Positions 23,026 to 63,471 of a DNA stretch of 64,000 nt are shown piece by piece. A program made the position numbers and the translations under genes. The notes under the pieces were generated by a model. It worked only from the letters and a program-made list of their open reading frames with translations. It was not told the origin of the DNA and ran no database searches. The stretch lies in the IMG/VR virus record IMGVR_UViG_3300042914_002678. One strand, written 5' to 3'. This DNA comes from a virus (Duplodnaviria > Caudoviricetes). Position 1 is the first letter of the stretch. Each line of letters begins with the position of its first letter.

Positions 23026-23263
23026 ACTAGTCAGTCAAAAAAACTTAAGGAAACCTGCAGTATCTGGATATGTTCTTTCCAGTAGCACCGTAGGTATTCA
23101 GACTTGGGTTGATAATAAATCTGTAGGCATATCAAGTGATGGGACTTCAATAGGAACCGCATCAACTATCAACTTCAGTGGTGCTACTGTTTCAATTTCT
23201 GCAGGCATTGCCTCAGTTGCTATTGCAGGTGGTTTAAACGTTTATAGTATCATAGGTTTATGA
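23018..23263 (+). CDS. Small hypothetical virion protein
   Basis: 81 aa, overlapping both neighbours. The GTSIGTASTINFSG segment resembles the GTLIKDSVRVLNFIG segment of the 1332-aa protein. Confidence 0.6.
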   Translation: MPKLVSQKNLRKPAVSGYVLSSSTVGIQTWVDNKSVGISSDGTSIGTASTINFSGATVSISAGIASVAIAGGLNVYSIIGL

Positions 23264-23415
23264 AAACCTTTAAAGAGTTTCAAGAAGAGTGGACGAATAA
23301 ATATAAAAAGAGTATTGACTGCTCAAATCCAAAAGGATTTTCTCAACGTGCCCACTGCGCGGCAAGAAGAAAAAGAGCAAGAGGTGAAGAAACAACATCA
23401 AAACCAGTTGAATGA
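23260..23415 (+). CDS. 51-aa basic protein with capsid-targeting-like N-terminus (missed by the ORF track)
   Basis: Hand translation: MKTFKEFQEEWTNKYKKSIDCSNPKGFSQRAHCAARRKRARGEETTSKPVE*. ATGA overlaps at both ends. Confidence 0.8.
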   Translation: MKTFKEFQEEWTNKYKKSIDCSNPKGFSQRAHCAARRKRARGEETTSKPVE

Positions 23416-25082
23416 AGTATCAAAAATTTTCCCACAAAACACCACATCTAAAAGGGAAACAACATCAGTTGGATCCCAATCTAGATTTAAAACAATTAGT
23501 ACATCATGCTACGGTTCAATATGTTGACCGTGACGCAGATGGCGATGTGGATGTTTATGATAATCCAAAGAAAAAAACTCCAGATGAAAATCCTGTAGAT
23601 ATTAATGTTGGCGCAGTATCTAAGAAATTAATTGCAAAGCAAAAGGGAGAGATTAAGCATACCAAAAGAGGTATGGCTTACGAGGGAAGTTTACATAAGT
23701 GGTTTAAGTCTTCTAGTTCAAAAGATGGAAAACCTGGTTGGGTTAATGTTGTAACTGGTGGAACTTGTGCAAGTGACGAACCGGGAGAGGGAACACCTAA
23801 GTGTGTTTCTTCTGCAAAAAGAGCAAGTATGACAGATGCAGAACGTCGCTCTGCAGCAAGAAGAAAAAAAGAGGCAGATCCTGGACAGCAGCAAAAATCC
23901 GGAGCAGCAAAACCAACTTACGTCTCAACCGATAGTCCTAAAAAAATGAAAGAAGAAAAAGAAGAAAGAAGATATTGTACTAAGTGTAAAAAGAAAGAGA
24001 CTCGCAGCGAGTGCTCTTATGGTCCTCAAGTTTGGGACAAATATTCCATTGCTTCTATCGTTCCAGCGAATGAAGAAAGGGACCACGAACATTCTATGGC
24101 TCGTTCAGAACTTTCTACAATTATGAACGCTGCGAAGAGATTGAAGAAGAAAATGGGTAAGGGTGAAGGAAATATTGAAGCGTGGGTTCAATCAAAAATC
24201 ACCAAAGCAGCAGACTACTTAGATTCTGCAGCAGATTATATCGATAGTGGTGAACATGACGTTGATGAAGAATGTTGGTCTGGATATAAGCAAGTGGGAA
24301 TGAAAAAGAAAGGTAAAAAAATTGTTCCCAATTGTGTTCCAGAAGAAACTGTTGGTGAAGAGAAAGACGTTAAAGGTAAAGGAAGTGGTAAGAAAGATGC
24401 TTGCTACAATAAAGTAAAATCAAGATATGATGTTTGGCCATCTGCATATGCTTCTGGGGCACTTGTAAAGTGTCGTAAAGTTGGTGCTGCTAACTGGGGC
24501 AACAAATCGGAGTCTGTATCTATAGAAGATGCAAATGGCAATCTTTATGCAGAGTTTGTGGATATTATTAAACCAGAACCATTAAAACCAACTGAAGGTA
24601 TTGGAAGCGAACTAGTTGGGGAAGCAGTTCGTATTCCAGCAAAAACGGGAAATATAATTCTTGTGACTCTAATTTGGAGAGCAAAATATTATATGATTAA
24701 AATGTTCTTCCCACAAGTAACCAAACCAAATAGAAAGGAAGTTCAGGATCAAATTGAAAAGGTATATCCTGGAGCAAAAGTTCAGTCTTATTATATTTCC
24801 GATATCAAACCAGGTGAACAGTTCTTACAAACTGAAGGTGCTGCTTGGACTCGTAAAGAGGGGCAGAATAAAGAAGGTGGTTTGAACGAGAAAGGTCGCA
24901 AATCATATGAGAGAGAAAATCCCGGAAGTGACCTTAAGGCACCATCCAAAAAAGTTGGTAATAAGCGTCGTGCATCATTTTGTGCAAGAATGTCTGGTAT
25001 GAAGAAAAAACTAACTTCAGCAAAAACTGCCAACGATCCAAATAGCAGAATAAATAAGTCATTAAGAGCTTGGAACTGCTGA
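23412..25082 (+). CDS. Modular basic protein, probable internal head polyprotein
   Basis: 556 aa made of short modules (SLHKWFK..GWV, CTKC..EC, CWSGY..VPNCV, YDVWPSAYASGALVKCRK, AAWTRKEG..GGLN) separated by xxE/E or xxE/A junctions. Confidence 0.7.
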   Translation: MKYQKFSHKTPHLKGKQHQLDPNLDLKQLVHHATVQYVDRDADGDVDVYDNPKKKTPDENPVDINVGAVSKKLIAKQKGEIKHTKRGMAYEGSLHKWFKSSSSKDGKPGWVNVVTGGTCASDEPGEGTPKCVSSAKRASMTDAERRSAARRKKEADPGQQQKSGAAKPTYVSTDSPKKMKEEKEERRYCTKCKKKETRSECSYGPQVWDKYSIASIVPANEERDHEHSMARSELSTIMNAAKRLKKKMGKGEGNIEAWVQSKITKAADYLDSAADYIDSGEHDVDEECWSGYKQVGMKKKGKKIVPNCVPEETVGEEKDVKGKGSGKKDACYNKVKSRYDVWPSAYASGALVKCRKVGAANWGNKSESVSIEDANGNLYAEFVDIIKPEPLKPTEGIGSELVGEAVRIPAKTGNIILVTLIWRAKYYMIKMFFPQVTKPNRKEVQDQIEKVYPGAKVQSYYISDIKPGEQFLQTEGAAWTRKEGQNKEGGLNEKGRKSYERENPGSDLKAPSKKVGNKRRASFCARMSGMKKKLTSAKTANDPNSRINKSLRAWNC

Positions 25083-25083
25083 T

Positions 25084-25395
25084 ATGAAATCTTTTAAGCA
25101 ATTCTTATCAGAGAGTATAACTATCAACGGAGATTTTAATGGAACTCTAAACGTTGGTGGCATGTCTCATCCAGAACAAGCGCAGGAATCTTTTTTTGCT
25201 GATGTTGTATGGGAGGGTAGACTTTACCGTTTAGAGGTAGAAGGTAAAATGCTTTCTAAAAATGAACTAGCTGAACAAATCCAAGGAGAATATCCTGGAG
25301 CCATTGTTCATAATGTTTATCCTTCTCAAGAAAACACTTCAAAAATTAAAAACGCACATAGATATCAGCCAGAAAGATTAACGTGGAGTGATTGA
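25084..25395 (+). CDS. Hypothetical protein with capsid-targeting-like N-terminus
   Basis: Begins MKSFKQFLSE. The LAEQIQGEYPGAIV segment resembles VQDQIEKVYPGAKV in the upstream ORF. Confidence 0.7.
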   Translation: MKSFKQFLSESITINGDFNGTLNVGGMSHPEQAQESFFADVVWEGRLYRLEVEGKMLSKNELAEQIQGEYPGAIVHNVYPSQENTSKIKNAHRYQPERLTWSD

Positions 25396-25398
25396 TTT

Positions 25399-26829
25399 AT
25401 GGCTCAGTGGAATATAACTACACAAGATTATTTAAATCAAGAAAGATCATTATTTGAAGTTGTAGGTGTTGCCTCAAGTGATGGACAAATAATTAGTCAC
25501 CAAAATCCATTTCCAGTCACTGGAACTGTGGGTATTTCATCGGAAACTGTTGTAACGATTAATCCAGATACAAATGCGGTTGATGCATTTGGTAGAAGTA
25601 GAGTTTCTGAACCATTTACTCTTGGTGACTACAAGCACTTATATGCTATTGACCCAAACTTTTTAGATAGTGTTTCTGGTACTGGTTCAACAGTAACATT
25701 TAAAATAAATCAAGCAGCAGCAAGATTGCAAACTGGTATTGGATCTACTGCATTTAGTATTCACCAAACGAAGTTTTATCATCACTATCAACCAGGAAAA
25801 GGACAACTAATTTTTAGTTCTTTTAACTTCTATGCTCCTCAACAAAATGCAACTAAAAGAACTGGATATTTTGATGATAGAGACGGAATTTATTTTGAAC
25901 AGGTTGGACTTAATACTTCTGATGGAATAAATCCTGGTATTGGAACAAACAATTGGGTAATCAGAACTTTTGTAAGTGGAATTGCAACAGAAACAAGAAT
26001 TCCACAATCGGAATGGAATAAAGACAAATGTGATGGAACAGGTACTTCTGGGTTCAATTTAGATATTACAAAAACTCAACTTGCATTTATAGATTTTCAG
26101 TGGTTAGGTGTTGGTAGAGTTCGTTGTGGATTTGCTCATAATGGACAACTCATCACCGCACACGAATTCAACCATTCCAACTATCAGACCACAGTTTATA
26201 TTGCAAATCCAAACCTACCAGTTCGTTGCGAACTCCGAAATACTGGTGTAGGTATTGGGGCATCATTCGATCAGATTTGTTCTTCTGTGATGTCAGAAGG
26301 TGGATATGTAGAAAGTGGTATTGACTTTGCTTATACAATGACTACTACAAGAACCACACCAACACCAGCAGGGACAGAACTTCCTTTGGTTGCCATTCGT
26401 CTCAAAAATATTTTTCAGGGATATCCAAATAGAATATCAGTTAAATTGAATAATATTTCATTATTCTGTGAAACAAATAGTATTGTGTATAAAGTTATAA
26501 AACTTCCAAGTTCTGCTTATTTAAGTAATGCAGGAACTTTAACTTGGACTTCTGCTTCTGATAATAGTGGTGTTGAGTTTTGTATTGATGCGACAACTTA
26601 TTTTAATGGTGATGTTTTTGCGTCTGGTTATGTTCCTTCTGGCGCATCACAAAACTCACTTTCACCAGTTGCTTCTGGAACATTAAGTCAGGCAAAGAAA
26701 AATATTATTGTTCAAAATATAGATTCAACAAACTCTGAAATTTATGTGCTTGTTGTAAGAACTATTACTACTACAGGTAACGCTACTGCTAACGTCGCTG
26801 CTGCTCTTCAATGGAGAGAAATTTATTAA
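25399..26829 (+). CDS. Hypothetical, probably structural, beta-rich protein (476 aa)
   Basis: Long ORF with DAFGRSRVSEP, YQPGKG and IDFQWLGVGRVRCGF motifs; G/T/S-rich like the virion proteins. Confidence 0.65.
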   Translation: MAQWNITTQDYLNQERSLFEVVGVASSDGQIISHQNPFPVTGTVGISSETVVTINPDTNAVDAFGRSRVSEPFTLGDYKHLYAIDPNFLDSVSGTGSTVTFKINQAAARLQTGIGSTAFSIHQTKFYHHYQPGKGQLIFSSFNFYAPQQNATKRTGYFDDRDGIYFEQVGLNTSDGINPGIGTNNWVIRTFVSGIATETRIPQSEWNKDKCDGTGTSGFNLDITKTQLAFIDFQWLGVGRVRCGFAHNGQLITAHEFNHSNYQTTVYIANPNLPVRCELRNTGVGIGASFDQICSSVMSEGGYVESGIDFAYTMTTTRTTPTPAGTELPLVAIRLKNIFQGYPNRISVKLNNISLFCETNSIVYKVIKLPSSAYLSNAGTLTWTSASDNSGVEFCIDATTYFNGDVFASGYVPSGASQNSLSPVASGTLSQAKKNIIVQNIDSTNSEIYVLVVRTITTTGNATANVAAALQWREIY

Positions 26830-26832
26830 AAT

Positions 26833-28479
26833 ATGACTGATAGTGTATATCTTGGTAATCCAAATTTAAAAAAGGCTAATACTCCTATTGAGTTTACAGA
26901 AGAACAAATTCTTGAGTTTGTTAAGTGTAAAGACGATCCAGTTTACTTTGCAAATAACTATATCAAAATTGTTTCTCTTGATGAGGGATTAACTCAGTTT
27001 CATCCATATCACTTCCAAGAAAAATTAATCAACAATTTCCATACCAATAGATTTAATATTTGTAAGATGCCGCGTCAGACTGGTAAGTCTACAACTGTGG
27101 TTTCCTATCTTCTTCACTACCTCATTTTTAATGATAGTGTGAATATTGGTATCTTGGCAAACAAAGCGGCTACTGCAAGAGAACTATTAAGTAGGTTAGC
27201 AACTGCTTACGAAAACCTACCAAAATGGATGCAGCAAGGTATTATATCTTGGAATAAAGGTAACATCGAATTAGAAAATGGATCAAAGATTCTGGCTGCT
27301 TCTACGTCTGCAAGTGCTGTCCGAGGCATGTCGTTCAATATCCTCTTCTTGGACGAATTCGCTTTCGTTCCAAACCATATCGCAGATTCCTTCTTTGCAT
27401 CTGTTTATCCTACTATTACTTCTGGTAAAAGCACGAAAGTAATTATTGTTTCAACCCCACATGGTATGAATCATTTCTACCGAATGTGGCATGATGCTGA
27501 AAAGGGTAGAAATGAATATGTACCAACAGATGTTCACTGGTCAGAAGTCCCTGGAAGAGATGAGGAATGGAAAAAGCAAACGATAGCGAACACCTCAGAA
27601 CAGCAATTTAAGATTGAGTTTGAGTGTGAATTCCTTGGATCTGTTGATACATTGATTGCGCCAAGCAAACTCAAAAGTTTCATTTATGACGCTCCAATTC
27701 AGAGGAATGCTGGATTAGATGTATATGAACAGGTAAAAGAAAACCACGACTACGTAATCACTGTTGACGTTGCTAGAGGAGTGAGTGAAGATTACTCTGC
27801 ATTTATCGTTGTTGATATAACTTCTTTCCCCCATTCAGTTGTTGCAAAATATAGAAACAATGAAATAAAACCAATGCTATTTCCAAATGTAATATACGAA
27901 GTAGCAAAGAACTATAATGGTGCATATATTCTCTGTGAGGTCAACGATATTGGGGACCAGGTAGCGTCATTGCTGCATTATGACCTAGAGTATCAAAACG
28001 TCTTAATGTGCTCAATGAGGGGGCGTGCAGGGCAGATTGTGGGGCAAGGATTTTCTGGGAAGAAAACTCAACTTGGCGTTAAGATGTCCAAGACTGTAAA
28101 AAAAGTTGGTGCCCTCAATCTCAAAACTATGATTGAGAGTGACAAATTGCTTTTCAAGGATTATGAAATAATTTCCGAACTTACGACTTTCATTTCAAAG
28201 CACAACTCATTTGAAGCAGAGGAGGGTTGTAATGATGACCTTGCAATGTGTCTGGTAATTTATGCTTGGTTGGTTGCACAAGACTACTTCAAAGAACTAA
28301 CTGACCAAGATATTAGAAAACGTTTATATGAAGAACAAAAGAACCAAATAGAACAAGATATGTCACCATTTGGATTTATTGTGGATGGTACAGATACGAC
28401 AAGTTTTGTTGACGTTGATGGAGACAGATGGTTTACTGATGAGTATGGTGATATGGCATATATGTGGGAGTATCAGTGA
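26833..28479 (+). CDS. gp17: Terminase large subunit gp17
   Basis: Walker A in KMPRQTGKST, Walker B in LFLDEFAF, IIVSTPHG, and nuclease motifs VDVARG and NDDLAM. Confidence 0.97.
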   Translation: MTDSVYLGNPNLKKANTPIEFTEEQILEFVKCKDDPVYFANNYIKIVSLDEGLTQFHPYHFQEKLINNFHTNRFNICKMPRQTGKSTTVVSYLLHYLIFNDSVNIGILANKAATARELLSRLATAYENLPKWMQQGIISWNKGNIELENGSKILAASTSASAVRGMSFNILFLDEFAFVPNHIADSFFASVYPTITSGKSTKVIIVSTPHGMNHFYRMWHDAEKGRNEYVPTDVHWSEVPGRDEEWKKQTIANTSEQQFKIEFECEFLGSVDTLIAPSKLKSFIYDAPIQRNAGLDVYEQVKENHDYVITVDVARGVSEDYSAFIVVDITSFPHSVVAKYRNNEIKPMLFPNVIYEVAKNYNGAYILCEVNDIGDQVASLLHYDLEYQNVLMCSMRGRAGQIVGQGFSGKKTQLGVKMSKTVKKVGALNLKTMIESDKLLFKDYEIISELTTFISKHNSFEAEEGCNDDLAMCLVIYAWLVAQDYFKELTDQDIRKRLYEEQKNQIEQDMSPFGFIVDGTDTTSFVDVDGDRWFTDEYGDMAYMWEYQ

Positions 28480-33613: not shown

Positions 33614-33883
33614 ATGTCAAGAATAATCGTTTCTGCTGGTGAAAATACATTATCCCCTGGTATTGGCAATTCAACAACTGTAAACAGTGCAAGATTTGTT
33701 AGAGTTGTCAACAACTCTGGAGCATCTGCAGTTCTATTTGTGCAAAATGCCAGTTATGCTGGAATTGGATCTGTAACACTATTAAACAGTACTGTTGAAA
33801 CTATTGAAAAGCATCCAGAAGATTCCATTTATTACTTGGGTAGTGGAACTATTAAAGTAGCAAGAGTAGGAGTTTCTCAATGA
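33614..33883 (+). CDS. Small hypothetical virion-associated protein
   Basis: 89 aa beta-rich ORF, with an ATGA overlap onto gp21. Confidence 0.65.
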   Translation: MSRIIVSAGENTLSPGIGNSTTVNSARFVRVVNNSGASAVLFVQNASYAGIGSVTLLNSTVETIEKHPEDSIYYLGSGTIKVARVGVSQ

Positions 33884-34530
33884 AACTAATTAGAGAAGAA
33901 ATCGAAAAGGTAGAAGTTATTACCGAAGAAAAAAACGGTAAGAAAGTTCTATTCATTCAAGGACCTTTTTTACAAACCGAACAACAAAATCGTAACGGTA
34001 GAGTTTATCGCCGTGATGTGATGGAGCGTGAGGTTAAGAGATATGCGGAGCAGTATATTTCTAAAGGTCGTGCTCTAGGTGAACTAGGACACCCAGAAGG
34101 TCCAACCATTAACCTGGATAGAGTATCTCATAAAATTATTTCACTAGAACAAAAGGGAAATGATTTTATCGGTAAAGCACAAATTCTATCCACACCAATG
34201 GGTAAAATTGCAGAGTCTCTATTAAAAGATGGAGTTACTCTTGGAGTTTCTTCTCGTGGTATTGGATCATTGAGACCAACTAAAGAAGGTTATTCTGAAG
34301 TCGGTGAAGATTTTATGCTTGCAACTGCTGCTGACATTGTTGCTGATCCATCTGCACCTGACGCTTTTGTTCAGGGAATTATGGAAGGAAAAGAGTGGGT
34401 TTGGGAAGGAGGAATTCTTCGTGAAAGACTCGCTGAACAAACTAAGAACAAAATTAATACTCTTGTAGATCAAAATGTTCTAGAAGAGTACAAACTTTCA
34501 ATTTTCAATGAGTTCTTAAATTCATTGTAA
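33880..34530 (+). CDS. gp21: Prohead core protease gp21
   Basis: NRNGRVY, RALGELGHP, GVSSRGIGSL and DIVADPSAPDAFV motifs. Confidence 0.97.
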   Translation: MKLIREEIEKVEVITEEKNGKKVLFIQGPFLQTEQQNRNGRVYRRDVMEREVKRYAEQYISKGRALGELGHPEGPTINLDRVSHKIISLEQKGNDFIGKAQILSTPMGKIAESLLKDGVTLGVSSRGIGSLRPTKEGYSEVGEDFMLATAADIVADPSAPDAFVQGIMEGKEWVWEGGILRERLAEQTKNKINTLVDQNVLEEYKLSIFNEFLNSL

Positions 34531-34584: not shown

Positions 34585-35712
34585 ATGTCTCGTGGTAACA
34601 ATTTACAAGAAATGGAAGTAGGCACTAAACCATCCAAGACTGCTGTTAATGCTGGAGCAAAAGCAGCAGAAGCAATGCCAAAACTTTCAGGCAATATCCC
34701 TGATGGTCAAACTGGTTCTTGGGAAGATCTTGGCGGTCCTACACCAGAAAACTACAAGTCTGACGATGATTCTGCAAAGCTGAAGACCCCTGGTGCTACA
34801 CTCAAGCAAGTTAGAGATGTAGTAAACAAGGGTGCAAAGCCTGCAGAAGCAATGAAGGGCATGAAGGAAGAAGAGGAACTCGATGATGAAGATGTAATCC
34901 TTGAGTCTGAAGAGGACGAAGAGGAAGTAGAACTCGAAGATGCCGAAGTAGAAGAAGGTGAAGAAGAAGAGGAAGTTGTAGAAGAAGAGTATGACTTAGA
35001 AGAGGATGTAAATGCCCTTCTAGGTGGCGAAGAACTCTCTGAAGAGTTCAAGGAAAGAGCAAAAACAATCTTCGAAGCAGCTATCAATTCTAAAGTTTCT
35101 GAAATTAAGGAACAACTCGAAGAGCAGTATGCTGCTGCTCTGACCGAGGAAGTAGAAGAAATTAAGGAAGCACTTTCCCAGCGTGTTGATTCATACCTAG
35201 AGTATGTTTCAGACGAGTGGTTCAATGAGAATGCACTTGTTATCGAGCACGCACTTAAGACCGAAGTAACTGAGAGTTTCCTCTCAGGTATGAAGGAACT
35301 TTTTGAAGCACATTATGTATCAATCCCTGAAGATAAATATGATGTTCTTGAGAGCATGGTAGAAAAACTTGATGAAATGGAGACAAAACTCAACGAGCAA
35401 ATTGAGAAAAACGTTTCCCTAAACAAGCGTCTCGCAGAGTCGGTTGCTGAAGGAATCTTAGATCAAGTCTCTGAAGGTCTTGCACAGACTCAGAAAGAGA
35501 AACTCGCTTCACTTGCCGAAAGTGTTGAGTTTGAAAGTGAAGAAGAATATCGTGAAAAACTGGAGATGCTAAAAGAGTCATATTTTGCCTCTAAGACCGC
35601 AGCTCCTACTGCTAAATCCGAATCGCTTTCTGAGGGAGTAGACGTTACGCCTGAAATTCATTCAGGTACAATGGAAAGATACCTCAGAACACTAGGTACT
35701 ATTAGCAAATAA
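34585..35712 (+). CDS. gp22: Prohead core scaffold protein gp22
   Basis: Acidic tract, LSEEFKERAKTIFEAA and VDSYLEYV motifs; lies between gp21 and gp23. Confidence 0.95.
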   Translation: MSRGNNLQEMEVGTKPSKTAVNAGAKAAEAMPKLSGNIPDGQTGSWEDLGGPTPENYKSDDDSAKLKTPGATLKQVRDVVNKGAKPAEAMKGMKEEEELDDEDVILESEEDEEEVELEDAEVEEGEEEEEVVEEEYDLEEDVNALLGGEELSEEFKERAKTIFEAAINSKVSEIKEQLEEQYAAALTEEVEEIKEALSQRVDSYLEYVSDEWFNENALVIEHALKTEVTESFLSGMKELFEAHYVSIPEDKYDVLESMVEKLDEMETKLNEQIEKNVSLNKRLAESVAEGILDQVSEGLAQTQKEKLASLAESVEFESEEEYREKLEMLKESYFASKTAAPTAKSESLSEGVDVTPEIHSGTMERYLRTLGTISK

Positions 35713-35763: not shown

Positions 35764-37182
35764 ATGTTCCAATCAGAGCATCTGCAGGAAAAGTGGGCAC
35801 CTCTCCTCAACTATGAGGGTCTTGATCCAATCAAAGATTCCCATCGTAAGGCGGTAACCGCAGTCCTGCTAGAAAACCAAGAAAAATTCCTGCGTGAGCA
35901 AAATGCTTTCGCAACCTCAGGTTCATTCCTAACCGAAGCTCCAACTAATGCAGTTGGTAACGGCGGTTTCACCAGTGCTGGTGGAGACACCACCACTGCA
36001 GGTTTCGATCCTGTTCTGATCTCCCTGATCAGACGCTCAATGCCTAACCTGGTCGCTTATGACCTCGCAGGTGTTCAGCCAATGAGTGGTCCTACTGGAC
36101 TCATCTTCGCAATGCGTTCACGCTACACCAGCCAGACCGGAACTGAAGCATTCTACGATGAAGTAGATTCTTCATTCTCTGGACAAGACGCTGGCTTCGA
36201 CGAGACCGATGGTTTCTCCGATGCTAATGCTGGTCTTGGTACAACTGGTTTTGGTGGTCTAGGAAGCAACCCTGCAGTTCTCAACCCTGTTGCAACTGCA
36301 TCATCAACCGGTTATAAGGTTGGTCAGGGTATGCGTACTGACGCTGCTGAGAATCTTGACGGCACCACTTCTGATGCCTTCAACCAGATGGCATTCTCAA
36401 TCGAGAAAGTCACTGTTACCGCTAAGTCAAGAGCTCTGAAAGCTGAGTACTCACTAGAACTCGCTCAGGACCTCAAGGCAATCCACGGTCTGAATGCTGA
36501 AGCGGAATTAGCAAACATTCTCTCAACTGAGATTCTTGCTGAAATCAACCGCGAAGTTATCAGAACCATTTACAAGATTGCTGAGCAAGGTGCTGCACAA
36601 AACACCGCAACTGCTGGTATCTTCGACCTCGACGTTGATTCAAACGGTCGTTGGTCTGTTGAGAAGTTCAAGGGTCTTCTATTCCAAATCGAGCGCGACG
36701 CTAACGCAATCGCACAAAGAACTCGTAGAGGAAAGGGCAACATCATCATGTGCTCTGCTGACGTTGCTTCAGCACTGACCATGGCTGGTGTTCTCGACTA
36801 CACCCCTGCACTCAACGCAAACCTCAACGTTGACGACACTGGTAACACCTTCGCTGGTGTTCTGCAAGGTAAGTATCGTGTTTATATCGATCCTTATTCT
36901 GCAAACCTCACCTCAGGTAACGCTGCAAACGGTAACCAGTATTACGTTGTTGGTTATAAGGGTTCTTCCCCTTATGACGCTGGACTCTTCTATTGTCCTT
37001 ATGTTCCTCTCCAAATGGTTCGTGCCGTTGGTGAGAACTCCTTCCAGCCAAAAATCGGCTTCAAGACCCGTTATGGTATTGTTGCCAACCCATTCGCTGA
37101 AGGAACAACTCAAGGTCTTGGTCGCCTGCGTGTTAACGCTAACCGCTACTACAGACGTGTTGCTGTTAAGAATCTCATGTGA
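35764..37182 (+). CDS. gp23: Major capsid protein gp23
   Basis: FDPVLISLIRR, VQPMSGPTGLIFAMR, AKSRALKAEYS, YCPYVPLQM and FQPKIGFKTRYG motifs. Confidence 0.99.
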   Translation: MFQSEHLQEKWAPLLNYEGLDPIKDSHRKAVTAVLLENQEKFLREQNAFATSGSFLTEAPTNAVGNGGFTSAGGDTTTAGFDPVLISLIRRSMPNLVAYDLAGVQPMSGPTGLIFAMRSRYTSQTGTEAFYDEVDSSFSGQDAGFDETDGFSDANAGLGTTGFGGLGSNPAVLNPVATASSTGYKVGQGMRTDAAENLDGTTSDAFNQMAFSIEKVTVTAKSRALKAEYSLELAQDLKAIHGLNAEAELANILSTEILAEINREVIRTIYKIAEQGAAQNTATAGIFDLDVDSNGRWSVEKFKGLLFQIERDANAIAQRTRRGKGNIIMCSADVASALTMAGVLDYTPALNANLNVDDTGNTFAGVLQGKYRVYIDPYSANLTSGNAANGNQYYVVGYKGSSPYDAGLFYCPYVPLQMVRAVGENSFQPKIGFKTRYGIVANPFAEGTTQGLGRLRVNANRYYRRVAVKNLM

Positions 37183-43986: not shown

Positions 43987-46120
43987 GGATTTGGTGGTTG
44001 AGCACAAGAGTGTTTCTACCGCTTGCTTCAATGTTCACACTCGGGTCTTGACTCTTCCTCTCTGGGAGAAAGCAAGTGGAACTGTCTATGACCTTCTTGT
44101 TGGACACGAAGTAGGACACGCTCTCTTCACTCCTGATGAAGATTGGTTGGATAAAGTAAAGGTTCCTCAACAGTTTGTGAACATTGTTGAAGATGCCCGT
44201 GTAGAAAAACTGATGAAGCGCAAGTATGCTGGACTTGCTAAGACTTTCTTTAATGGTTATAAGGAACTGAACGAAGAAGATTTCTTTCAGATTGCCGATG
44301 ATGATATTTCTACTTTCAATCTTGCTGACCGAGTAAATCTTTACTTCAAGGTTGGAAACTTTATTACTCTGGATTTCAAACCAGAGGAGCAGGAAATCAT
44401 CAATCTGATTTCTGTGTCTGAAACTTTTGCAGATGTTCTGATTGCTGCAGAAGAACTTTACAAGTATTGTAAGAAAGAAAAGGAACAGGAACAAAAGGTT
44501 GCTGACTTTGATTCGCATGAAATGCAAGGAGATTCTCGGTCTCCCGCAAACGAAATTGTGGAAACTAATGACTCCTCTTCTGAACAGGAAGATGATAGTG
44601 ATAACTCCCAACCTAAGGAGGATGATGGTTCCTACGGTGGAACTGCTCAGGGAGATCAAACCCCAGTTAAATCTTCGGGTGAGGAAGATGAACCTGAAGT
44701 TCGCACTGCAGATTCTTTAGAAGAAAAGATTCGTGACCTTGTGGGAAATGACGCATATGATAATACTTATGTTGAAGTTCCCCAACTGAATCTGGAGACT
44801 GTTATTGCTAAAAACTCTGATATTCATAAGGATATTGACCACTCATTTTCTAATCAACAGAAAATTCATAATGACTGGGCTGCTGGGCATGGAGTTGAAC
44901 CAACAAATCTCTATAAGATTTCTGACACTGAATTCAAGAAGTTCAAGTCCTCTGCACAGAAAGAAGTGAACTATCTTGTGAAAGAGTTTGAATGTCGTAA
45001 AGCAGCAGATCAATATGCTCGTGCTTCAACTGCTCGCACTGGTGTTCTTGATACTGCACGTCTTCATACCTACAAGTACAATGAAGACTTGTTCAAAAAG
45101 GTTTCTGTAATTCCTGACGGTAAGAATCATGGTCTGGTGTTTGTACTGGATTGGAGTGGTTCTATGTCCGAAGTAATGCTTGATACTTGTAAGCAACTCT
45201 TCAATCTTGTATGGTTCTGTAAGAAAGTTTCTATTCCTTTTGAGGTTTATGCTTTCACTAATGAATGGCGGCGCGGTGAGTATGATTATGAAAATGAACG
45301 TTACATTGCTGCTGATCGTACCCCTCATTATGATGGGAAAGAAAGTTTGTTGATTGTGGATGAAACTTTCTCTATGATGAACATTCTTACCAGTAAAGTT
45401 TCTGGTAAAGATCTAGAGCATCAACTTCTCAATATCTGGCGTCTTGCATATTGCTTTGGTAGGCAGTATCAGTGTCACTATACATATTCTCATCGTATGT
45501 GTCTTTCTGGCACTCCATTGAATGAGGCATTGATTTCTCTTCACCAAATTCTCCCTAAGTTTCAGAAGGAAAATAAACTGCAAAAGGTTCAGTGTATTGT
45601 TCTGACTGATGGTGAAGCAAACCAACTGACTTATCACAAAGAAGTACGACGTTCTTACTCCAAAGAACCTGTCCTTGGTAGTGGTTATGTACATCCTCAC
45701 AATACTCTTCTTCGTGACCGTAAACTTGGAACCACTTATAAAATTGACCATGGGTATCACACTTTTACGGATACTCTCCTCAATAACCTAAAGGATAAGT
45801 TTTCATCTACAAACTTTATCGGCATTCGTGTTCTTGAAAGTAGGAATGCTCAGCGGTTTATCAGTCTCTATCATTCTCAACTTGATAAACAGTATGAGAA
45901 AATTCAGAATGACTGGAGGAAACTGAGGAGTTTTACTATTACTAACTCTGGTTATGATGCCTACTTTGGAATGTCTGCAACTGCCCTTGCTCAGGAATCC
46001 GAGTTTGAAGTTGCCGAATGTGCTACAAAATCTCAAATTAAAACTGCATTTTTGAAGTCTCTGAAGACCAAGAAACTCAACAAAAAAGTTCTTGGTGAGT
46101 TCATTTCTCTTGTGGCATAA
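43934..46120 (+). CDS. Metallopeptidase-motif (HExxH) plus vWA/MIDAS protein (CobT-like)
   Basis: HEVGH, NIVEDARVE, MIDAS DWSGS, SGTPL and LTDGE motifs. Start moved to MPVRHEIK (43934) because the track ATG at 43907 lies in the -10 box. Confidence 0.85.
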   Translation: MPVRHEIKSQLAKLLATEDLVVEHKSVSTACFNVHTRVLTLPLWEKASGTVYDLLVGHEVGHALFTPDEDWLDKVKVPQQFVNIVEDARVEKLMKRKYAGLAKTFFNGYKELNEEDFFQIADDDISTFNLADRVNLYFKVGNFITLDFKPEEQEIINLISVSETFADVLIAAEELYKYCKKEKEQEQKVADFDSHEMQGDSRSPANEIVETNDSSSEQEDDSDNSQPKEDDGSYGGTAQGDQTPVKSSGEEDEPEVRTADSLEEKIRDLVGNDAYDNTYVEVPQLNLETVIAKNSDIHKDIDHSFSNQQKIHNDWAAGHGVEPTNLYKISDTEFKKFKSSAQKEVNYLVKEFECRKAADQYARASTARTGVLDTARLHTYKYNEDLFKKVSVIPDGKNHGLVFVLDWSGSMSEVMLDTCKQLFNLVWFCKKVSIPFEVYAFTNEWRRGEYDYENERYIAADRTPHYDGKESLLIVDETFSMMNILTSKVSGKDLEHQLLNIWRLAYCFGRQYQCHYTYSHRMCLSGTPLNEALISLHQILPKFQKENKLQKVQCIVLTDGEANQLTYHKEVRRSYSKEPVLGSGYVHPHNTLLRDRKLGTTYKIDHGYHTFTDTLLNNLKDKFSSTNFIGIRVLESRNAQRFISLYHSQLDKQYEKIQNDWRKLRSFTITNSGYDAYFGMSATALAQESEFEVAECATKSQIKTAFLKSLKTKKLNKKVLGEFISLVA

Positions 46121-46123
46121 ATA
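46117..46123 (+). promoter_or_regulatory. Late promoter (ATAAATA) within the early/middle region
   Basis: Overlaps the stop of the vWA gene, 25 nt before ORF 46148. Confidence 0.65.
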
Positions 46124-58017: not shown

Positions 58018-59393
58018 TGGATAAAGTTGAAATTCTAATTCTTCGCAATCTCCTTCATAATGAGGAATACATCCGAAAGGTAGTTCCTTTTATTAAGTCT
58101 GATTATTTTGAAGAAACAAACCAAAAAATTATTTTTGAAGAAATACTCAAATTTATTCAAGAATATAACCAACCAGCGACTAAAGAAGTTCTTTGTATTG
58201 AAGTAGAAAATAGGCAAGACATAAACGATTCCTCCTTTAAAGAGATTACGCAACTTATCAGTTATCTTGATGATGAACCATCTGAATTTAATTGGTTGGT
58301 TGATACCACTGAGAAGTGGTGTCGAGATCGTGCAATCTATCTTGCTCTTATGGAATCAATCCATATTGCAGATGGTAAAGATGATAAGAAAAATCGTGAC
58401 AGCATACCTAGTATTCTATCTGATGCTCTTGCAGTATCTTTTGACACAAACATTGGTCACGATTACCTGCTAGACTATGAAAAACGTTATGAATCTTATC
58501 ATAAGAAAGAAGACAAGATTGAATTTGACCTCGAATACTTTAACAAAATCACAAAGGGTGGTTTACCTAATAAGACTCTCAATATCGCTCTTGCTGGTAC
58601 GGGTGTCGGAAAAAGTCTCTTTATGTGCCATGTTGCTGCTTCCGTCTTATTGCAAGGCAGGAACGTTCTCTACATCACTCTTGAAATGGCGGAGGAACGA
58701 ATTGCTGAGCGAATTGATGCAAACCTCCTCAATGTCCCGATTCAGGATATTGCAGAACTACCAAAGCAGATGTTTGAAAATAAAGTAACGAATCTTTCAA
58801 AGAAAACTCAGGGAACTCTAATTATCAAAGAGTATCCAACTGCTTCTGCTCATGCTGGACACTTCAAGTCACTTCTTAATGAACTTGCACTTAAGAAGTC
58901 ATTTAGACCTGATATTATTTTCATTGACTACCTTAATATTTGTGCTTCCTCTAGGTATCGCGGAAATAGTAACATCAATTCCTATACGTTTGTAAAAGCA
59001 ATTGCTGAGGAACTTAGGGGACTTGCCGTTGAGTTTAATGTTCCAATTGTCTCCGCTACCCAGACCACTCGTTCAGGTTATGGTTCTTCTGATGTTGAAC
59101 TTACTGATACTTCTGAATCCTTTGGTCTCCCTGCTACTGCTGATCTTATGTTTGCCCTTATTAGCACTGAAGAATTGGAGGGATTGGGACAGATACTTGT
59201 AAAACAACTTAAGAATCGTTATAACGACCCTACCATTCATAAGCGGTTTGTGGTTGGTATTGATAGAGCAAAGATGCGTCTTTATGATTGTGAACAGTCT
59301 GCTCAACAGGATATCCTTGACAATGGAAAGGATGAAGAGTATGATTATGAAGAAAGAAAACCTAAAAAATCATTTGAGGGATTCAAGTTTTGA
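58017..59393 (+). CDS. gp41: Replicative DNA helicase gp41
   Basis: AGTGVGKS, ITLEMAEE, IDYLN, SATQTTR, SESFG and KNRY motifs. Confidence 0.97.
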   Translation: MDKVEILILRNLLHNEEYIRKVVPFIKSDYFEETNQKIIFEEILKFIQEYNQPATKEVLCIEVENRQDINDSSFKEITQLISYLDDEPSEFNWLVDTTEKWCRDRAIYLALMESIHIADGKDDKKNRDSIPSILSDALAVSFDTNIGHDYLLDYEKRYESYHKKEDKIEFDLEYFNKITKGGLPNKTLNIALAGTGVGKSLFMCHVAASVLLQGRNVLYITLEMAEERIAERIDANLLNVPIQDIAELPKQMFENKVTNLSKKTQGTLIIKEYPTASAHAGHFKSLLNELALKKSFRPDIIFIDYLNICASSRYRGNSNINSYTFVKAIAEELRGLAVEFNVPIVSATQTTRSGYGSSDVELTDTSESFGLPATADLMFALISTEELEGLGQILVKQLKNRYNDPTIHKRFVVGIDRAKMRLYDCEQSAQQDILDNGKDEEYDYEERKPKKSFEGFKF

Positions 59394-59677
59394 TTTACTA
59401 CACGGTATTTGATGCAAATGGTAACAAGATTGCCGATTGTGGTGATGAAGGAGATGCTAAGTGGTTGGCAGAATGTCGCAGAGGCACTTATAAAACCAAC
59501 AGACTTGACTGGAGCGTAACTATTGATGTAGAATTGCCAAGATTTGAACTTCCTGTCCACCAAGTTGTTCCTAAAGAATATTGGAATTCTATGTATCCAG
59601 ACATTCCAGATGACATTGATGAACCGATTGTTAAACAACTTTCTGAATCTGACCTAGAAAAATTTACTGTTAATTGA
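59390..59677 (+). CDS. Hypothetical protein
   Basis: 95 aa filling the gp41-mazG gap, overlapping the gp41 stop and ending 1 nt before mazG. Confidence 0.65.
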   Translation: MIYYTVFDANGNKIADCGDEGDAKWLAECRRGTYKTNRLDWSVTIDVELPRFELPVHQVVPKEYWNSMYPDIPDDIDEPIVKQLSESDLEKFTVN

Positions 59678-59678
59678 T

Positions 59679-60092
59679 ATGACTAAAGTTATTGACTCTG
59701 ATAAGTATATTGAATTTGTGCGCCAAACGACAAGTCCTGCCAGTAGTGACTTTGCACAACTTCTCACTCGAATGACTGAACTTGAAGCAAATGATGATGC
59801 AGATGTTCCCCGTCTCTTGACTGCTGCTTTTGGTATTAGTGCGGAAGCAGGTGAGTTTACTGAAGTTGTTAAAAAGATTTTCCTTCAAGGAAAACCTTAT
59901 AATGAAGATAATGTTTTTCACATGAAGCGTGAACTTGGAGATATCTGCTGGTATATTGCTCAAGCGTGTATGGCACTTGATACTAACTTTCGTGAGATTA
60001 TGGAAATGAATTATGAGAAGTTAAGTGCTCGTTATCCTGACGGTACATTTGATGTTTACCGTTCTGAAAATCGTGTGGAGGGAGATCTGTGA
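59679..60092 (+). CDS. mazG: MazG-like nucleoside triphosphate pyrophosphohydrolase
   Basis: AEAGEFTEVVKK, RELGDICWY and NYEKLSARY motifs. Confidence 0.93.
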   Translation: MTKVIDSDKYIEFVRQTTSPASSDFAQLLTRMTELEANDDADVPRLLTAAFGISAEAGEFTEVVKKIFLQGKPYNEDNVFHMKRELGDICWYIAQACMALDTNFREIMEMNYEKLSARYPDGTFDVYRSENRVEGDL

Positions 60093-60274
60093 CTAAAGAA
60101 AAACAAGTTACACTTAAACTAGATGCACGTTGTGCTGCAGCAGTTCGTCAAGTTCTATTTGATGCACAGAAAGGATACACTTATGATGAAGTGAGTGTTC
60201 CTCCTCGTGTCTCTGATATTCGTGGAGTAATTCAACAACTTGATGATAATATTGGCGCTGTCCTTGGTGTTTGA
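60089..60274 (+). CDS. Small hypothetical protein
   Basis: 61 aa, GTG start overlapping the mazG stop. Confidence 0.65.
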   Translation: MTKEKQVTLKLDARCAAAVRQVLFDAQKGYTYDEVSVPPRVSDIRGVIQQLDDNIGAVLGV

Positions 60275-60293
60275 CCCTTCGGGGTCTTTTTTT
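60273..60293 (+). terminator. Rho-independent terminator with UUCG tetraloop
   Basis: GACCC-TTCG-GGGTC followed by a run of T. Confidence 0.88.
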
Positions 60294-60300
60294 ATAAATA
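60293..60300 (+). promoter_or_regulatory. Late promoter (TATAAATA)
   Basis: Perfect consensus fused to the terminator T-tract. Confidence 0.75.
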
Positions 60301-60322
60301 TCTAAAAAAGTATTTGTAAAAA

Positions 60323-60679
60323 ATGGACTCTAAAGAACTACGCGGTTTGATGGAAGCATATGCCGCAGTTTATGCCCCAAAAGAAAAAATTGAAGAAGCA
60401 ATGCATGAAGATGAAGATGAAGAAGATGAGAAGGAAATGAAAAAAGGTAAGAAGTCCAAAAAGTCTGAAGAAGACGAAGAGGGCGATGAAGAGGAAGATG
60501 AAGATCTAAAAGAAGCATCTTACTCCGCAAAGGCAGCAAGAGCAGGTAAGGATATTGGCAAACCTGGTAAAGCATTTGCAAAGATTGCAAAGTCTGCTGC
60601 AAAGCGTTATGGTTCTGAAGAGCGTGGTAAAAAGGTAGCAGGAGCAATCCTTGCAAAACTACGTGCTAAGAAGGGTTAA
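60323..60679 (+). CDS. Probable internal head protein (acidic linker plus basic C-terminal module)
   Basis: LMEAYAAVY N-terminus, IEE/A and LKE/A junctions, a D/E tract and a K/A/G-rich tail; late promoter upstream. Confidence 0.65.
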   Translation: MDSKELRGLMEAYAAVYAPKEKIEEAMHEDEDEEDEKEMKKGKKSKKSEEDEEGDEEEDEDLKEASYSAKAARAGKDIGKPGKAFAKIAKSAAKRYGSEERGKKVAGAILAKLRAKKG

Positions 60680-60703
60680 TAAATAACCACGGAAGGTTGC
60701 TCC

Positions 60704-60739
60704 AACCCACTTGACTTTTAGTTAAGTGGGTTTTATAAT
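60704..60739 (+). promoter_or_regulatory. Near-consensus sigma70 promoter for the tRNA, overlapped by an inverted repeat
   Basis: TTGACT (60711-16), 17 nt spacer, TATAAT (60734-39). AACCCACTT (60704-12) pairs with AAGTGGGTT (60724-32). Confidence 0.8.
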
Positions 60740-60748
60740 ATCTGCATC

Positions 60749-60821
60749 GGGGAATTAGCTTAGTTGGTAGAGCGCCTGCTTTGCACGCAGGAGGTCAGGA
60801 GTTCGAGTCTCCTATTCTCCA
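60749..60821 (+). tRNA. tRNA-Ala (anticodon UGC), CCA not encoded
   Basis: Cloverleaf: acceptor GGGGAAT/ATTCTCC with the G3:U70 Ala identity pair, D-loop AGTTGGTA, anticodon stem CCTGC/GCAGG with loop TTTGCAC, T-loop TTCGAGT. Confidence 0.96.
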
Positions 60822-60824
60822 TTT

Positions 60825-60831
60825 CTAAATA
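60825..60831 (+). promoter_or_regulatory. Late promoter variant (CTAAATA)
   Basis: Between the tRNA and ORF 60845. Confidence 0.5.
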
Positions 60832-60844
60832 AAAATAAAACACG

Positions 60845-62149
60845 ATGGCTGTTTTAAATAGCACTTCTCCAGGACAACTTGGCAAATACGTTTTGCCAAC
60901 AATAGAAATAATCAGAACTGGAACAGTAACTACAGCAACAAAAACCTTTAAATTAACTAAAGGTAAGTTTAATGAAGATGCAATAAAAAAATTTGCCGAT
61001 GTTGGAATGAAGGGGTCTTCTCATCAAAAAGAAGCTTTACAAATTCCTCTAGAAACTACAGACCCAAAAAATAAATATGTTAATATTGGTAGATTAAATA
61101 AGCCTAATATAAAATACAATCTTGGTGACATGGCAGAAGGAGTTGTTGGGGCAGCTATCACCGCTAGATTTATATACAAAAATAGAAATATAAATTCTCA
61201 ACTTGTATATGGAGTTTTGAGAACTTTGGCGAAGGCTGGAACTAGTAACTATCCAGGAAAGAAAGGTAAACAAGTTGAAAAAACATTTAAGTCTGCGAAT
61301 GCAAACCCAAAAATTATGGATGATGTTAGATGTTTTATATCTTTAGCCGAAGTAAATATGAGTGCTTTGCTTGAGAGAAGTAAGGAATCTATATTAAAAG
61401 AATATGTAGACTCCGCAGTAAAATATGCAAACAGTAATAATGTTAAGAAGTGGGCGGAGTTAGTTTATAACAATAATAGATATGACAAAATAGAAGTATT
61501 GTCTGATGGATTGGGGGGGCAAAAAACAACAAAAGTTGATGTCACTGTAAAAATTACTGATGATAAAGGAAAATTAATGCCGGTTGATATTTTAGTTTCA
61601 TTAAAAGCTGGTGATGTGAAACAATTTGGTCAAGTTTCTGGAGCAGAGTTTTCGAAACAAGAAGAACTATGGGAACGCTTATTTGGCTATAAAAAAATTA
61701 TCAAACCTTTGGAAAAAGAATATGAAAAGTTAATGTTTGTTGATAAGCAACCAGATGAAGCAGTATTTTTGGTATATCAAAAAGTAAGTCAACAACTGCA
61801 GTCAGATTTGAATAGTAATAAGTCTGAGGAAATTTTAAAAAAAATGTCAGCAGCTATAAAATATTTTGCTACCTTAAATGAAGATTACGTATCTCTTGTG
61901 CAAGTAGGTGGTGGTAAAGCAAAAATTTATAAGTTTGATAACATTTATGAAAAATTAATTGGAAGAGACTATAGATCATCCATAAAAACTGGAGCAAGTG
62001 GGTTGCCCACAATAATTATAAGTAGTGGTAATGAAGATCTAATTCAATTTAGAGTAAAACAAGAATTCAAATCTGATGGTAGTCCATATATAAGAAATTA
62101 CGTCGAAAAATTATCTTTACTTGGAGATTTGTTGGCAGAAACATTGTAA
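60845..62149 (+). CDS. Hypothetical protein, possible PD-(D/E)xK nuclease fold
   Basis: GDMAEG...KVDV...VSLKAG arrangement resembles E..D..(S/E)xK nuclease active sites; AT-rich coding sequence. Confidence 0.5.
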   Translation: MAVLNSTSPGQLGKYVLPTIEIIRTGTVTTATKTFKLTKGKFNEDAIKKFADVGMKGSSHQKEALQIPLETTDPKNKYVNIGRLNKPNIKYNLGDMAEGVVGAAITARFIYKNRNINSQLVYGVLRTLAKAGTSNYPGKKGKQVEKTFKSANANPKIMDDVRCFISLAEVNMSALLERSKESILKEYVDSAVKYANSNNVKKWAELVYNNNRYDKIEVLSDGLGGQKTTKVDVTVKITDDKGKLMPVDILVSLKAGDVKQFGQVSGAEFSKQEELWERLFGYKKIIKPLEKEYEKLMFVDKQPDEAVFLVYQKVSQQLQSDLNSNKSEEILKKMSAAIKYFATLNEDYVSLVQVGGGKAKIYKFDNIYEKLIGRDYRSSIKTGASGLPTIIISSGNEDLIQFRVKQEFKSDGSPYIRNYVEKLSLLGDLLAETL

Positions 62150-62155
62150 TAAATA
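62149..62155 (+). promoter_or_regulatory. Late promoter (ATAAATA)
   Basis: Overlaps the upstream stop, about 20 nt before ORF 62176. Confidence 0.7.
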
Positions 62156-62175
62156 AAGGTATAAGATTAAACAAT

Positions 62176-63471
62176 ATGAAGAGTTTTTTCCAATTTCTAA
62201 ATGAGGCAACCCAATCGCAAGCATCGATGCAAGCGAAGAAGTTAAACCTCAAGAGTGATGGTCACGGCGGTTGGTTGGACAGTCGTGGAGAATTTGTTGC
62301 GAAAACAGAGGGGGGAAAATTAGTATTCTATGATAAGGGTAGAGTAGACGGGGGTAAAGACCAACCAAAAGGTGCAGTAGGAAGATCGGATGCTACATCA
62401 AAACCAGAAGCAAAACCAACAGCAGCACCTGCGCCAAAGGCATCGGCAAAAGCAACTTCATCAACTGCAGATGTTCCTACAGATAGTGATACCTTAACTG
62501 TTGCATTTGGAAGATTTAATCCGCCAACAGTAGGACACGAAAAACTTTTGAAGTCTGCAAGAAAGGCAGCTGCTGGTGGAGATTTGAAGATTTATCCTTC
62601 AAGAACTCAGGACCCAAAGAAAAATCCTCTTGATCCTGATATGAAGATTTCTTTTATGAAAAAAATGTTCCCCGACTTTGATGAGAATATTATTAATGAT
62701 GATGAAATGAAATCAATTTTTAATGTACTAGTTGCAGCATCTGAGGAAGGATATGCTAATGTCAATATAGTTGTTGGATCTGATAGACAAGCGGAATTTG
62801 AAAATCTTGCTCAGAAATACAATGGAGACTTATACCAATTTGATTTAATCCGTGTTATTTCTGCTGGTATGAGAGATGCTGATGCCGAAGGCGTTGAAGG
62901 TATGTCCGCATCTAAAATGAGAAAGGCAGTTATCGAAGATGATTTTGAATCTTTCCGCAGAGGAACACCAAAGACATTAGATGATGGTGATACTCAAGCA
63001 CTCTTTGATGCAGTCCGTCAGGGAATGGGTGCAAAGAAAAAGAAGAAGGTTGCTGAGTTGTGGCAGATTGCTCCAAAGTATGATTTAGAGACTCTCCGTG
63101 AAAATTATATTACTGGCAAAATTTTCAGAATTGGTGATATTGTAGAAAATTTAAATACGGGATTGGTTGGAGAAATTATGCGTAGAGGTACAAATTATCT
63201 CATCTGTGTCACTGAAGATGGTTATATGTTTAAATCTTGGATTCGTGATGTAATGGAATATACTGAAGTGAAAATGGAAAAGAAAGTGAGAGTTTCTGGT
63301 AAACCGAATACATTAGTTGGAACGGGTGGATATTTTAAATATGCTGTTGATATGACACCTGGATTTGAAAAAGGAGACAAAACAAATCTTCAATATGGCG
63401 CAAAACCTTATAGTGGATATAAGCAAACTAACGTTAAGGAATTCATAAATAAGTATAAGGTAAAGAAATAG
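62176..63471 (+). CDS. HIGH-family nucleotidyltransferase (cytidylyltransferase-like)
   Basis: FGRFNPPTVGH (HxGH-like), VVGSDR and MSASKMR (KMSKS-like) motifs; N-terminus MKSFFQFLNE. Confidence 0.85.
   Translation: MKSFFQFLNEATQSQASMQAKKLNLKSDGHGGWLDSRGEFVAKTEGGKLVFYDKGRVDGGKDQPKGAVGRSDATSKPEAKPTAAPAPKASAKATSSTADVPTDSDTLTVAFGRFNPPTVGHEKLLKSARKAAAGGDLKIYPSRTQDPKKNPLDPDMKISFMKKMFPDFDENIINDDEMKSIFNVLVAASEEGYANVNIVVGSDRQAEFENLAQKYNGDLYQFDLIRVISAGMRDADAEGVEGMSASKMRKAVIEDDFESFRRGTPKTLDDGDTQALFDAVRQGMGAKKKKKVAELWQIAPKYDLETLRENYITGKIFRIGDIVENLNTGLVGEIMRRGTNYLICVTEDGYMFKSWIRDVMEYTEVKMEKKVRVSGKPNTLVGTGGYFKYAVDMTPGFEKGDKTNLQYGAKPYSGYKQTNVKEFINKYKVKK

Follow-up and report, generated by a model that had tools for sequence, protein, structure and literature searches.

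Why do unrelated proteins of a single phage begin with almost the same ten residues? The question is raised by a 64,000-nt stretch of DNA from a tailed virus (IMG/VR record IMGVR_UViG_3300042914_002678; this whole stretch is called the window, and positions are counted from its first letter), in which a first-pass annotation had pointed to four open reading frames (ORFs), at 23260, 25084, 46148 and 62176, with near-identical N-terminal decapeptides, and had proposed that these load unrelated cargoes into the phage head in the manner of the capsid-targeting sequence (CTS) of phage T4. All four ORFs were recovered at these coordinates with the expected starts (Table 1). We consider it probable (roughly 0.75) that this decapeptide, M-(K/R)-(S/T)-F-x-(E/Q)-F-(L/M)-x-E, represents the T4 CTS in its cyanophage form and acts through the five-step mechanism proposed below; a T4-type tag on unrelated cargoes is supported by its position and sequence, a cleavage motif, the gp21/gp22/gp23 machinery of the window, detection of orthologs in virions and the portability of the tag.

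The shared leader and the T4-type prohead core

A six-frame scan of the window with M[KR][ST][FY]x[EQ]Fxx[E] returned these four ORFs only, each starting 4–31 codons past an in-frame stop. F4, F7 and E10 are constant among them, and position 8 is L, M and L in the three larger ORFs and Q in the 51-aa ORF at 23260. Residues 8–10 of the larger three (LSE, MSE and LNE) fit or nearly fit (L/I)-x-E and resemble LTE↓A of the major capsid protein gp23 (the arrow marks the cut), whereas QEE of 23260 does not fit. The DNA pattern ATGARRWCNTWYNNNSARTTYNNNNNNGAR had three matches in the window against 0.00 expected from 100 dinucleotide shuffles, the fourth tagged ORF escaping it by its Ser codon AGT. 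In AlphaFold2 (AF2) models of the 46148 and 62176 proteins, the leader is a short helix at residues 4–11, predicted with low confidence.

Textbooks cover both the T4 CTS and the diversity of T-even internal proteins, and the T4 record bore out what had been said of them, with internal proteins IPII and IPIII starting MKTYQEFIAE and IPI starting MKTFKEFTSTTTPVSTITE↓A. The first seven residues of the 23260 ORF (MKTFKEF) are identical to those of IPI. When all of T4 was searched with a relaxed DNA pattern, M(K/R)x(F/Y)xxFxxE, only ipII, ipIII and gene 61.1 were found, the last encoding a 54-aa hypothetical protein next to the primase gene. For packaging, the N-terminal ten residues of IPIII are enough; within the CTS, targeting depends most on residues 4 and 7 and processing on residues 8 and 10; and T4 CTS cargoes, fusion proteins included, are delivered into the cell (PMC9026906). 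The window leaders share with the T4 CTS (Mullaney and Black 1996; reviewed in PMC9026906 and PMC3012670) the ten N-terminal residues MKT(F/Y)xEFxxE with hydrophobic positions 4 and 7, a putative gp21 site at positions 8–10 followed by a small residue after the Glu, and a setting of probably late genes in a phage with gp20, gp21, gp22 and gp23, where unrelated cargoes have only the tag in common. They differ in that position 8 is mostly Leu or Met in place of the Ile of T4, that the cargoes are a SAM (S-adenosylmethionine) lyase, an NMNAT-like transferase and cyanophage-specific small proteins in place of IPI–III, that the tagged genes are scattered over structural and replication modules, and that packaging and cleavage are here read from sequence.

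The machinery that such a leader would need is encoded in the window. With a G+C content of 36.5%, the window is the part of a T4-like cyanomyovirus genome that holds structural and replication genes, and its best DNA matches, at ~74% identity, are to the Synechococcus phages SynMITS9220M01, S-SM2, Bellamy and S-SCSM1. Genes follow the T4-like order from baseplate and fibres through terminase, sheath, tube, portal gp20, gp21 protease, gp22 scaffold and gp23 to the replication genes, and all confidently called genes lie on the + strand. Matches to the Pfam families Peptidase_S77, T4_CASP, Gp23 (E = 6e-148) and Portal_T4 were all far above their cutoffs, indicating that a T4-type prohead core is encoded. 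In T4 gp23, the sequence GSFLTE followed by AEIGG is the known gp21 maturation site; on alignment, GSFLTE↓A is identical in the window and T4, and other cyanophages have (L/I)xE there. Since gp21 already has to cut this (L/I)xE-type site in gp23, three of the four tags end in a site of the type that this protease handles.

The promoter context likewise suggests late genes. The late promoters that had been reported at 46117 and 62149 are both present as ATAAATA, and a third, at 25050, precedes the 25084 ORF. ATAAATA occurs 28 times on the + (coding) strand of the window versus once on the − strand, and it lies upstream of 15 of 59 window genes, mostly structural; among the four tagged genes, three have it (hypergeometric P = 0.047). 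The 23260 ORF is without a promoter motif of its own and sits in a late structural operon. Motifs also stand before 60323, 62176 and 63481 (within 60323–64000), so that the tagged transferase gene lies in a small late island within the replication module.

Table 1 Features of the window discussed in the text (the arrow marks the expected cut)
Feature	Position	Strand	Remarks
51-aa ORF	23260..23415	+	MKTFKEFQEE, then basic Cys module (CSNPKGFSQRAHC); ATGA overlap with start of next gene
556-aa untagged basic modular protein	23412..25082	+	C-terminal DUF6321; between two tagged ORFs
ATAAATA late-promoter-like motif	25050..25056	+	34 nt before 25084 start
103-aa ORF	25084..25395	+	MKSFKQFLSE↓S; viral-only family phrog_1742
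gp21 prohead core protease	33880..34530	+	Pfam Peptidase_S77, E = 3e-33; expected remover of tags
gp22 scaffolding core protein	34585..35712	+	Pfam T4_CASP, E = 1e-79; expected docking partner of tag
gp23 maturation-site residues 55–58 (FLTE), then A59	35926..35937	+	Aligned with T4 gp23 GSFLTE↓AEIGG
ATAAATA late-promoter-like motif	46117..46123	+	31 nt before 46148 start
SAM lyase precursor (by Pfam and predicted fold), 170 aa	46148..46660	+	Tag MRTFQEFMSE↓C, short linker, T3-type SAM lyase domain (residues ~33–156)
ATAAATA late-promoter-like motif	62149..62155	+	27 nt before 62176 start
Nucleotidyltransferase precursor, 431 aa	62176..63471	+	Tag MKSFFQFLNE↓A; domains by motif, PHROG and AF2 model

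Tagged proteins in virions and genomes of relatives

Orthologs of two of the four window cargoes, the 62176 and 46148 proteins, are present in published cyanophage virion proteomes. The nucleotidyltransferase has been found in virions of S-SM1 (PMC3037559), S-SCSM1 (PMC9602691), S-SZBM1 (PMC9146016) and S-CREM2 (PMC10665884). The 62176 protein is 64% identical to SSCSM1_91, which starts MKSFLQFLKE and is annotated as a virion protein (PMC9602691), and 46% identical to PSSM2_194, a member of T4-GC190, the cyanophage core gene that Sullivan et al. found in S-SM1 virions (PMC3037559). Another member of the family, S-SZBM1_140, starts MRFRQFIIE↓A, a shorter or shifted leader, and is the only enzyme in the S-SZBM1 virion proteome (PMC9146016). 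The 46148 protein is 55% identical to residues 1–171 of the virion protein S-CREM2 ORF6, a SAM hydrolase detected with 19 peptides (PMC10665884).

S-CREM2 allowed tags and virion proteins to be compared across a whole genome, in which 52 of 221 ORFs (24%) are listed as virion proteins (Table 3 of PMC10665884). A relaxed regular expression matched six ORF starts, of which five are clear, and the proteome contains every one of these five: ORF6 (SAM hydrolase, MKDFDSFLEE), ORF13 (MKDLHSFLTE), ORF14 (kinase, VKRFDAFLTE), ORF136 (MQTFSMFFSE) and ORF154 (cytidylyltransferase, MKNFSSFLTE). The sixth match is weak and absent from the proteome. Five of five would be expected about 7 times in 10,000 by chance under a simple binomial. 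Two further S-CREM2 virion proteins (locus L087, 3000–14500; L-numbers are our labels for loci) have shorter or shifted leaders: gp15 begins MNFSEFNESL, and the 'Cas9-like' gp12 has LRFASFMAE↓A at residues 17–25. In the view put forward by the S-CREM2 authors, the virion brings these proteins into the cell, where the SAM hydrolase acts against restriction; their paper identifies no targeting signal and allows for carry-over (PMC10665884). Because relatives of both have been found in purified particles and both bear a T4-type tag, the SAM lyase and the nicotinamide adenine dinucleotide (NAD)-type nucleotidyltransferase are probably carried in the head.

These proteomes also bear on another account of the shared N-terminus, namely that it is an expression or recombination element, such as an AT-rich initiation region or a cassette seam, and that the virion detections reflect carry-over of abundant late proteins. 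An AAA second codon and AT-rich starts do favour translation, the proteome authors themselves raise carry-over, and T4 gp61.1 has the motif beside the primase gene. Set against this, synonymous sites vary among the four window tags, and the DNA upstream of them shows no relationship beyond the promoter motif; conservation therefore acts on the peptide and not on a recombination seam. The conserved F4, F7, E10 and small residue 11 are, moreover, the positions named for targeting and processing in T4 (PMC9026906), and all five clear S-CREM2 tags fall in a proteome that holds 24% of ORFs. We regard an expression element with carry-over as very improbable.

The scan of related genomes for the motif that the first-pass annotation had suggested was run in IMG/VR, with the pattern MK(S/T)Fx(Q/E)FLxE. 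The forward pattern occurred in at least 120 stretches versus 5 for the reversed pattern, and 80 loci with 81 matches were examined. All 81 matches lie at ORF starts, 0–34 codons past an in-frame stop, and T4-like genes flank 74 of the 80 loci. MK- starts are common in AT-rich genomes, and four similar N-termini might accordingly be a compositional accident; the absence of expected matches in the window shuffles, the reversed-pattern control and the ORF-start positions refute such a chance origin. BLAST grouped what follows the tag into 34 clusters, the window's own proteins included; besides the window's three larger families, these hold a P-loop protein, a ligase-like protein and families of 67 aa (Cys-rich) and 185 aa, among others. 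Single families occur both with and without the tag. The ligase-like family, which has a KxDG motif, is one: a tagged 409-aa ORF in L169 starts MKSFRQFLGE↓EKNTHMEHLED, and an S-SZBM1 member (L225:2538-3731), adjoining the transferase gene, starts MAKNTHLEHLED and is untagged. We hold it about an even chance that the decapeptide is a general address label, shared by T4-like cyanophages and their relatives in sea and fresh water, for a large and interchangeable range of proteins that are loaded into the capsid and co-injected.

Several points weigh against reading the leader as a packaging signal. T4 gp61.1 carries the motif outside the virion modules and has no late-promoter motif within 60 nt upstream, so the motif alone is no proof of packaging. 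Abundant late proteins could co-purify with virions, as the proteome authors warn. The 25084 orthologs SSCSM1_30 and S-SZBM1_191 are not among the 45 and 30 virion proteins detected in their respective phages, although both are small and the S-SZBM1 list is short. Some virion proteins of the region, such as SSCSM1_29, are untagged, and other routes into the virion therefore exist. The window phage is uncultured, and the virion evidence comes from orthologs. In the promoter enrichment check proposed earlier, ATAAATA preceded 17 of 63 tagged versus 84 of 1053 background ORFs in IMG/VR (P = 1.5e-5), which speaks for a late context, but this contrast is inflated by non-genes in the background set. 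The tag of 23260, finally, has Q at position 8 and is without the Leu, Ile or Met of the cleavage site, and this ORF may, judging from its alignment, be a short form or remnant of a longer gene.

The tagged proteins

The 46148 protein had been given no function, and Pfam supplies one: PF23780 matched residues 33–156 with 60.3 bits (cutoff 28; E = 2.5e-16). A PDB sequence search gave nothing useful for either 46148 or 62176, and folds were therefore predicted by model. The seven top PDB matches of the 46148 model (mean pLDDT 62, with the core at ~31–150 better predicted) were all T3 SAM lyase or Svi3-3 (8BB1, 6ZNB, 6ZM9, 7OCK), with a best E of 1.2e-4 and TM-scores of 0.50 and 0.57. By Pfam and modelled fold, the protein is a member of the SAM lyase family. 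It resembles T3 SAM lyase (gp0.3; PDB 8BB1, 7OCK) and Svi3-3 (6ZM9, 6ZNB) in Pfam family, in fold and presumably in an anti-restriction logic of SAM removal. T3 SAM lyase is made as an early gene product after entry; the 46148 gene, in contrast, has a late-promoter-like motif and a putative head-targeting leader, and its product would arrive pre-made.

All 120 SAM-lyase homologs listed carry PF23780, and nearly all of them start MKT[FY]x[EQ]F[IVM]xE, with mostly Ser or Ala after Glu10; one starts MKTYREFIAE, nine of ten residues as in T4 IPII and IPIII. Variable insert modules lie between tag and enzyme, and the tag stays at the extreme N-terminus despite these insertions and deletions. Many homologs (P0015–P0124) reach 205–292 aa through unrelated inserts, such as AGDWWHPDP... 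and AYDRSSGRPHRGTDY..., S-CREM2 ORF6 has ~240 extra residues at its C-terminus instead, and the 707-aa S-SZBM1_194 apparently has a SAM-lyase-like module at its end. A homolog from an Alishewanella phage (L005:2501-3106) starts MNFVQLLESE, a shorter or shifted leader.

The 62176 protein consists of the tag, a DGHGGW mini-domain, a P/A/K-rich linker, an NMNAT-like domain of the HIGH superfamily and a C-terminal beta domain. Its earlier identification as a nucleotidyltransferase held up by three lines: a match to phrog_395 'cytidyltransferase' (E = 9e-105), HIGH-superfamily motifs and the AF2 fold. The motifs are FGRFNPPTVGH, of the (H/T)xGH type, with G120 and H121 invariant, and MSASKMR, of the ISxTxxR type, with S244 and R249 invariant (alignment A2). 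Curated profile scores fell below threshold (Pfam CTP_transf_like, 16.1 bits versus 21; TIGR00125, 17.5 versus 27.7). The model matched NadM, NadD and NMNAT best and PPAT slightly less well (E = 2e-5 to 1e-3), which suggests a protein resembling nicotinamide mononucleotide (NMN) adenylyltransferase in fold, with NMN, another mononucleotide or cytidine triphosphate-dependent chemistry as substrate candidates. Some nucleotidyltransferases are short and have the tag attached straight to the catalytic domain, and in S-SCSM1 the genes flanking the transferase ortholog on either side are annotated as virion proteins. The preceding window gene, 60845–62149, was considered as an ortholog of one such virion protein, SSCSM1_90, and dropped when BLAST showed no similarity.

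The family of the 103-aa 25084 protein is present in 135 cyanophage records and is the commonest cargo in the IMG/VR sample. The label 'DUF3293-like' that had been attached to a tagged cargo was not borne out: no DUF3293-like protein was found, Pfam and NCBIfam returned nothing for 25084, and the Atlas gave viral hypothetical clusters only. The S-SCSM1 ortholog SSCSM1_30 is 54% identical and starts MKTFKQFMSE. The adjacent 556-aa protein, which has a domain in common with the 25084 protein, falls in the 25084 cluster as well. That protein, 49% identical to the virion protein SSCSM1_29, may be a head-loaded polyprotein, and some of its modules stand alone behind tags elsewhere. One, W.G..Y...YPG, is similar to ORF 25084; another, CW.GY...VPNCVPEE, comes after a tag in L155; and the C-terminal one follows a tag and Cys module in S-SZBM1_192 (MKTFKQYITE).

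The 51-aa ORF at 23260, which had no Pfam, NCBIfam or PHROG match, shares 82% identity, across 38 aa, with the C-terminal module of a tagged family of 142–144 aa (S-SM2 91376; IMG/VR L147), its MKTFKEFQEE aligning with an internal RKTFGQFQEGW. Members of this longer family (S-SM2 91376-91804, equal to L033:11376-11804; L147:259-690) carry the tag and, behind it, a copy of the N-terminus of mature gp23 (PTNSVG..GY..AG.DP), and T4 gp61.1 (L081:467-631), MKTFKEFIKE↓DMVAGDSGGNP..TSGAV, looks like the same arrangement relative to T4 gp23. An origin of the 51-aa ORF from the internal repeat of the longer family would account for its atypical Q8. The ORF could even be a decayed remnant, its start falling on a tag-like repeat, and no working cargo at all: it aligns solely to the last 38 residues of the longer family, lacks L, I or M at position 8 and a promoter of its own, and belongs to no Pfam or PHROG family. 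Its frame is nevertheless intact, its ATG lies 4 codons past a stop and is ATGA-coupled to the next gene, and F4 and F7 are retained. We think decay of this one ORF less likely than not.

A proposed route into the host and its meaning

In the mechanism that we propose, the tagged genes would be transcribed late, from ATAAATA promoters or inside late operons, and during prohead assembly the N-terminal leader would dock each precursor onto the gp22 scaffolding core. The gp21 protease would then cleave after Glu10 at (L/M)-x-E↓(S/A/C), as at gp23 FLTE↓A. Mature cargo would remain in the head among the DNA while scaffold fragments exit, and would leave with the DNA at the next infection. In the new host, a T3-type SAM lyase would deplete SAM for type I and type III restriction and BREX-like defences before phage gene expression, and the NMN-adenylyltransferase-like cargo may act on NAD or nucleotide metabolism. 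We infer docking on gp22, cleavage at Glu10, a location in the head and not the tail, ejection and action in the host; the first of these steps would follow from likeness to T4 and the shared machinery, and presence in the virion from the published ortholog proteomes.

The tag might instead load the prohead with proteins that act inside the head, as DNA-condensing, charge-neutralising or scaffold-accessory factors, or that are degraded there by gp21. The 51-aa ORF and the 556-aa neighbour are Lys/Arg-rich, and T4 packs ~1000 internal protein molecules with its DNA (PMC3012670). Two of the cargoes, however, are folded enzymes with cytoplasmic substrates (SAM and nucleotides) and have no obvious job in a DNA-filled head, and T4 CTS cargoes, fusions included, reach the cell (PMC9026906). 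As a general account, action or degradation within the head is rather improbable; for the two small proteins (51 and 103 aa), an in-head role could apply.

Delivery by the route proposed here would resemble that of T4 Alt, P1 DarA, DarB and Hdf, the N4 virion RNA polymerase and the SPN3US ejection proteins, which are synthesised late, enclosed in the capsid and passed into the host together with the DNA, several of them reportedly trimmed by the prohead protease (PMC5694885, PMC9024508). These proteins differ in using other or unidentified targeting signals, none of them this decapeptide. T4-like cyanophages have virion 'regulatory proteins' of their own (T4-GC190 and, in S-CREM2, the SAM hydrolase and an APH/ChoK-like kinase), T4-GC190 and the SAM hydrolase being direct orthologs of 62176 and 46148; the papers describing them contain no targeting signal and allow for carry-over (PMC3037559, PMC9602691, PMC9146016, PMC10665884), and the shared T4-type leader, found on each of these proteins, is added here. 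The association of NMNAT-like, SAM hydrolase and kinase proteins with cyanophage virions is already published, and no paper linking the T4 CTS to cyanophages was found among open-access papers and bioRxiv.

T4-like cyanophages are among the most abundant marine viruses. A T4-type leader gives a mechanism for the presence of enzymes in purified particles, which the proteome papers could not separate from contamination, and it offers a simple sequence rule for predicting the proteins that a phage carries into the cell. It suggests that SAM-depletion anti-restriction can arrive pre-made and not early-expressed, and cyanophage leaders, if they work in T4 heads, would be natural variants for T4-based protein-delivery vectors. 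Should the decapeptide prove to be a general address label, it would cover dozens of cargo families, among them SAM lyase, NMNAT-like transferases, kinases, ligase-like and P-loop proteins, Cys-rich mini-proteins and modular proteins; carried proteins would then be readable straight from the genome, and many 'hypothetical' late genes of the myoviruses most abundant in the ocean would be host-takeover or anti-defence factors of the first minute of infection.

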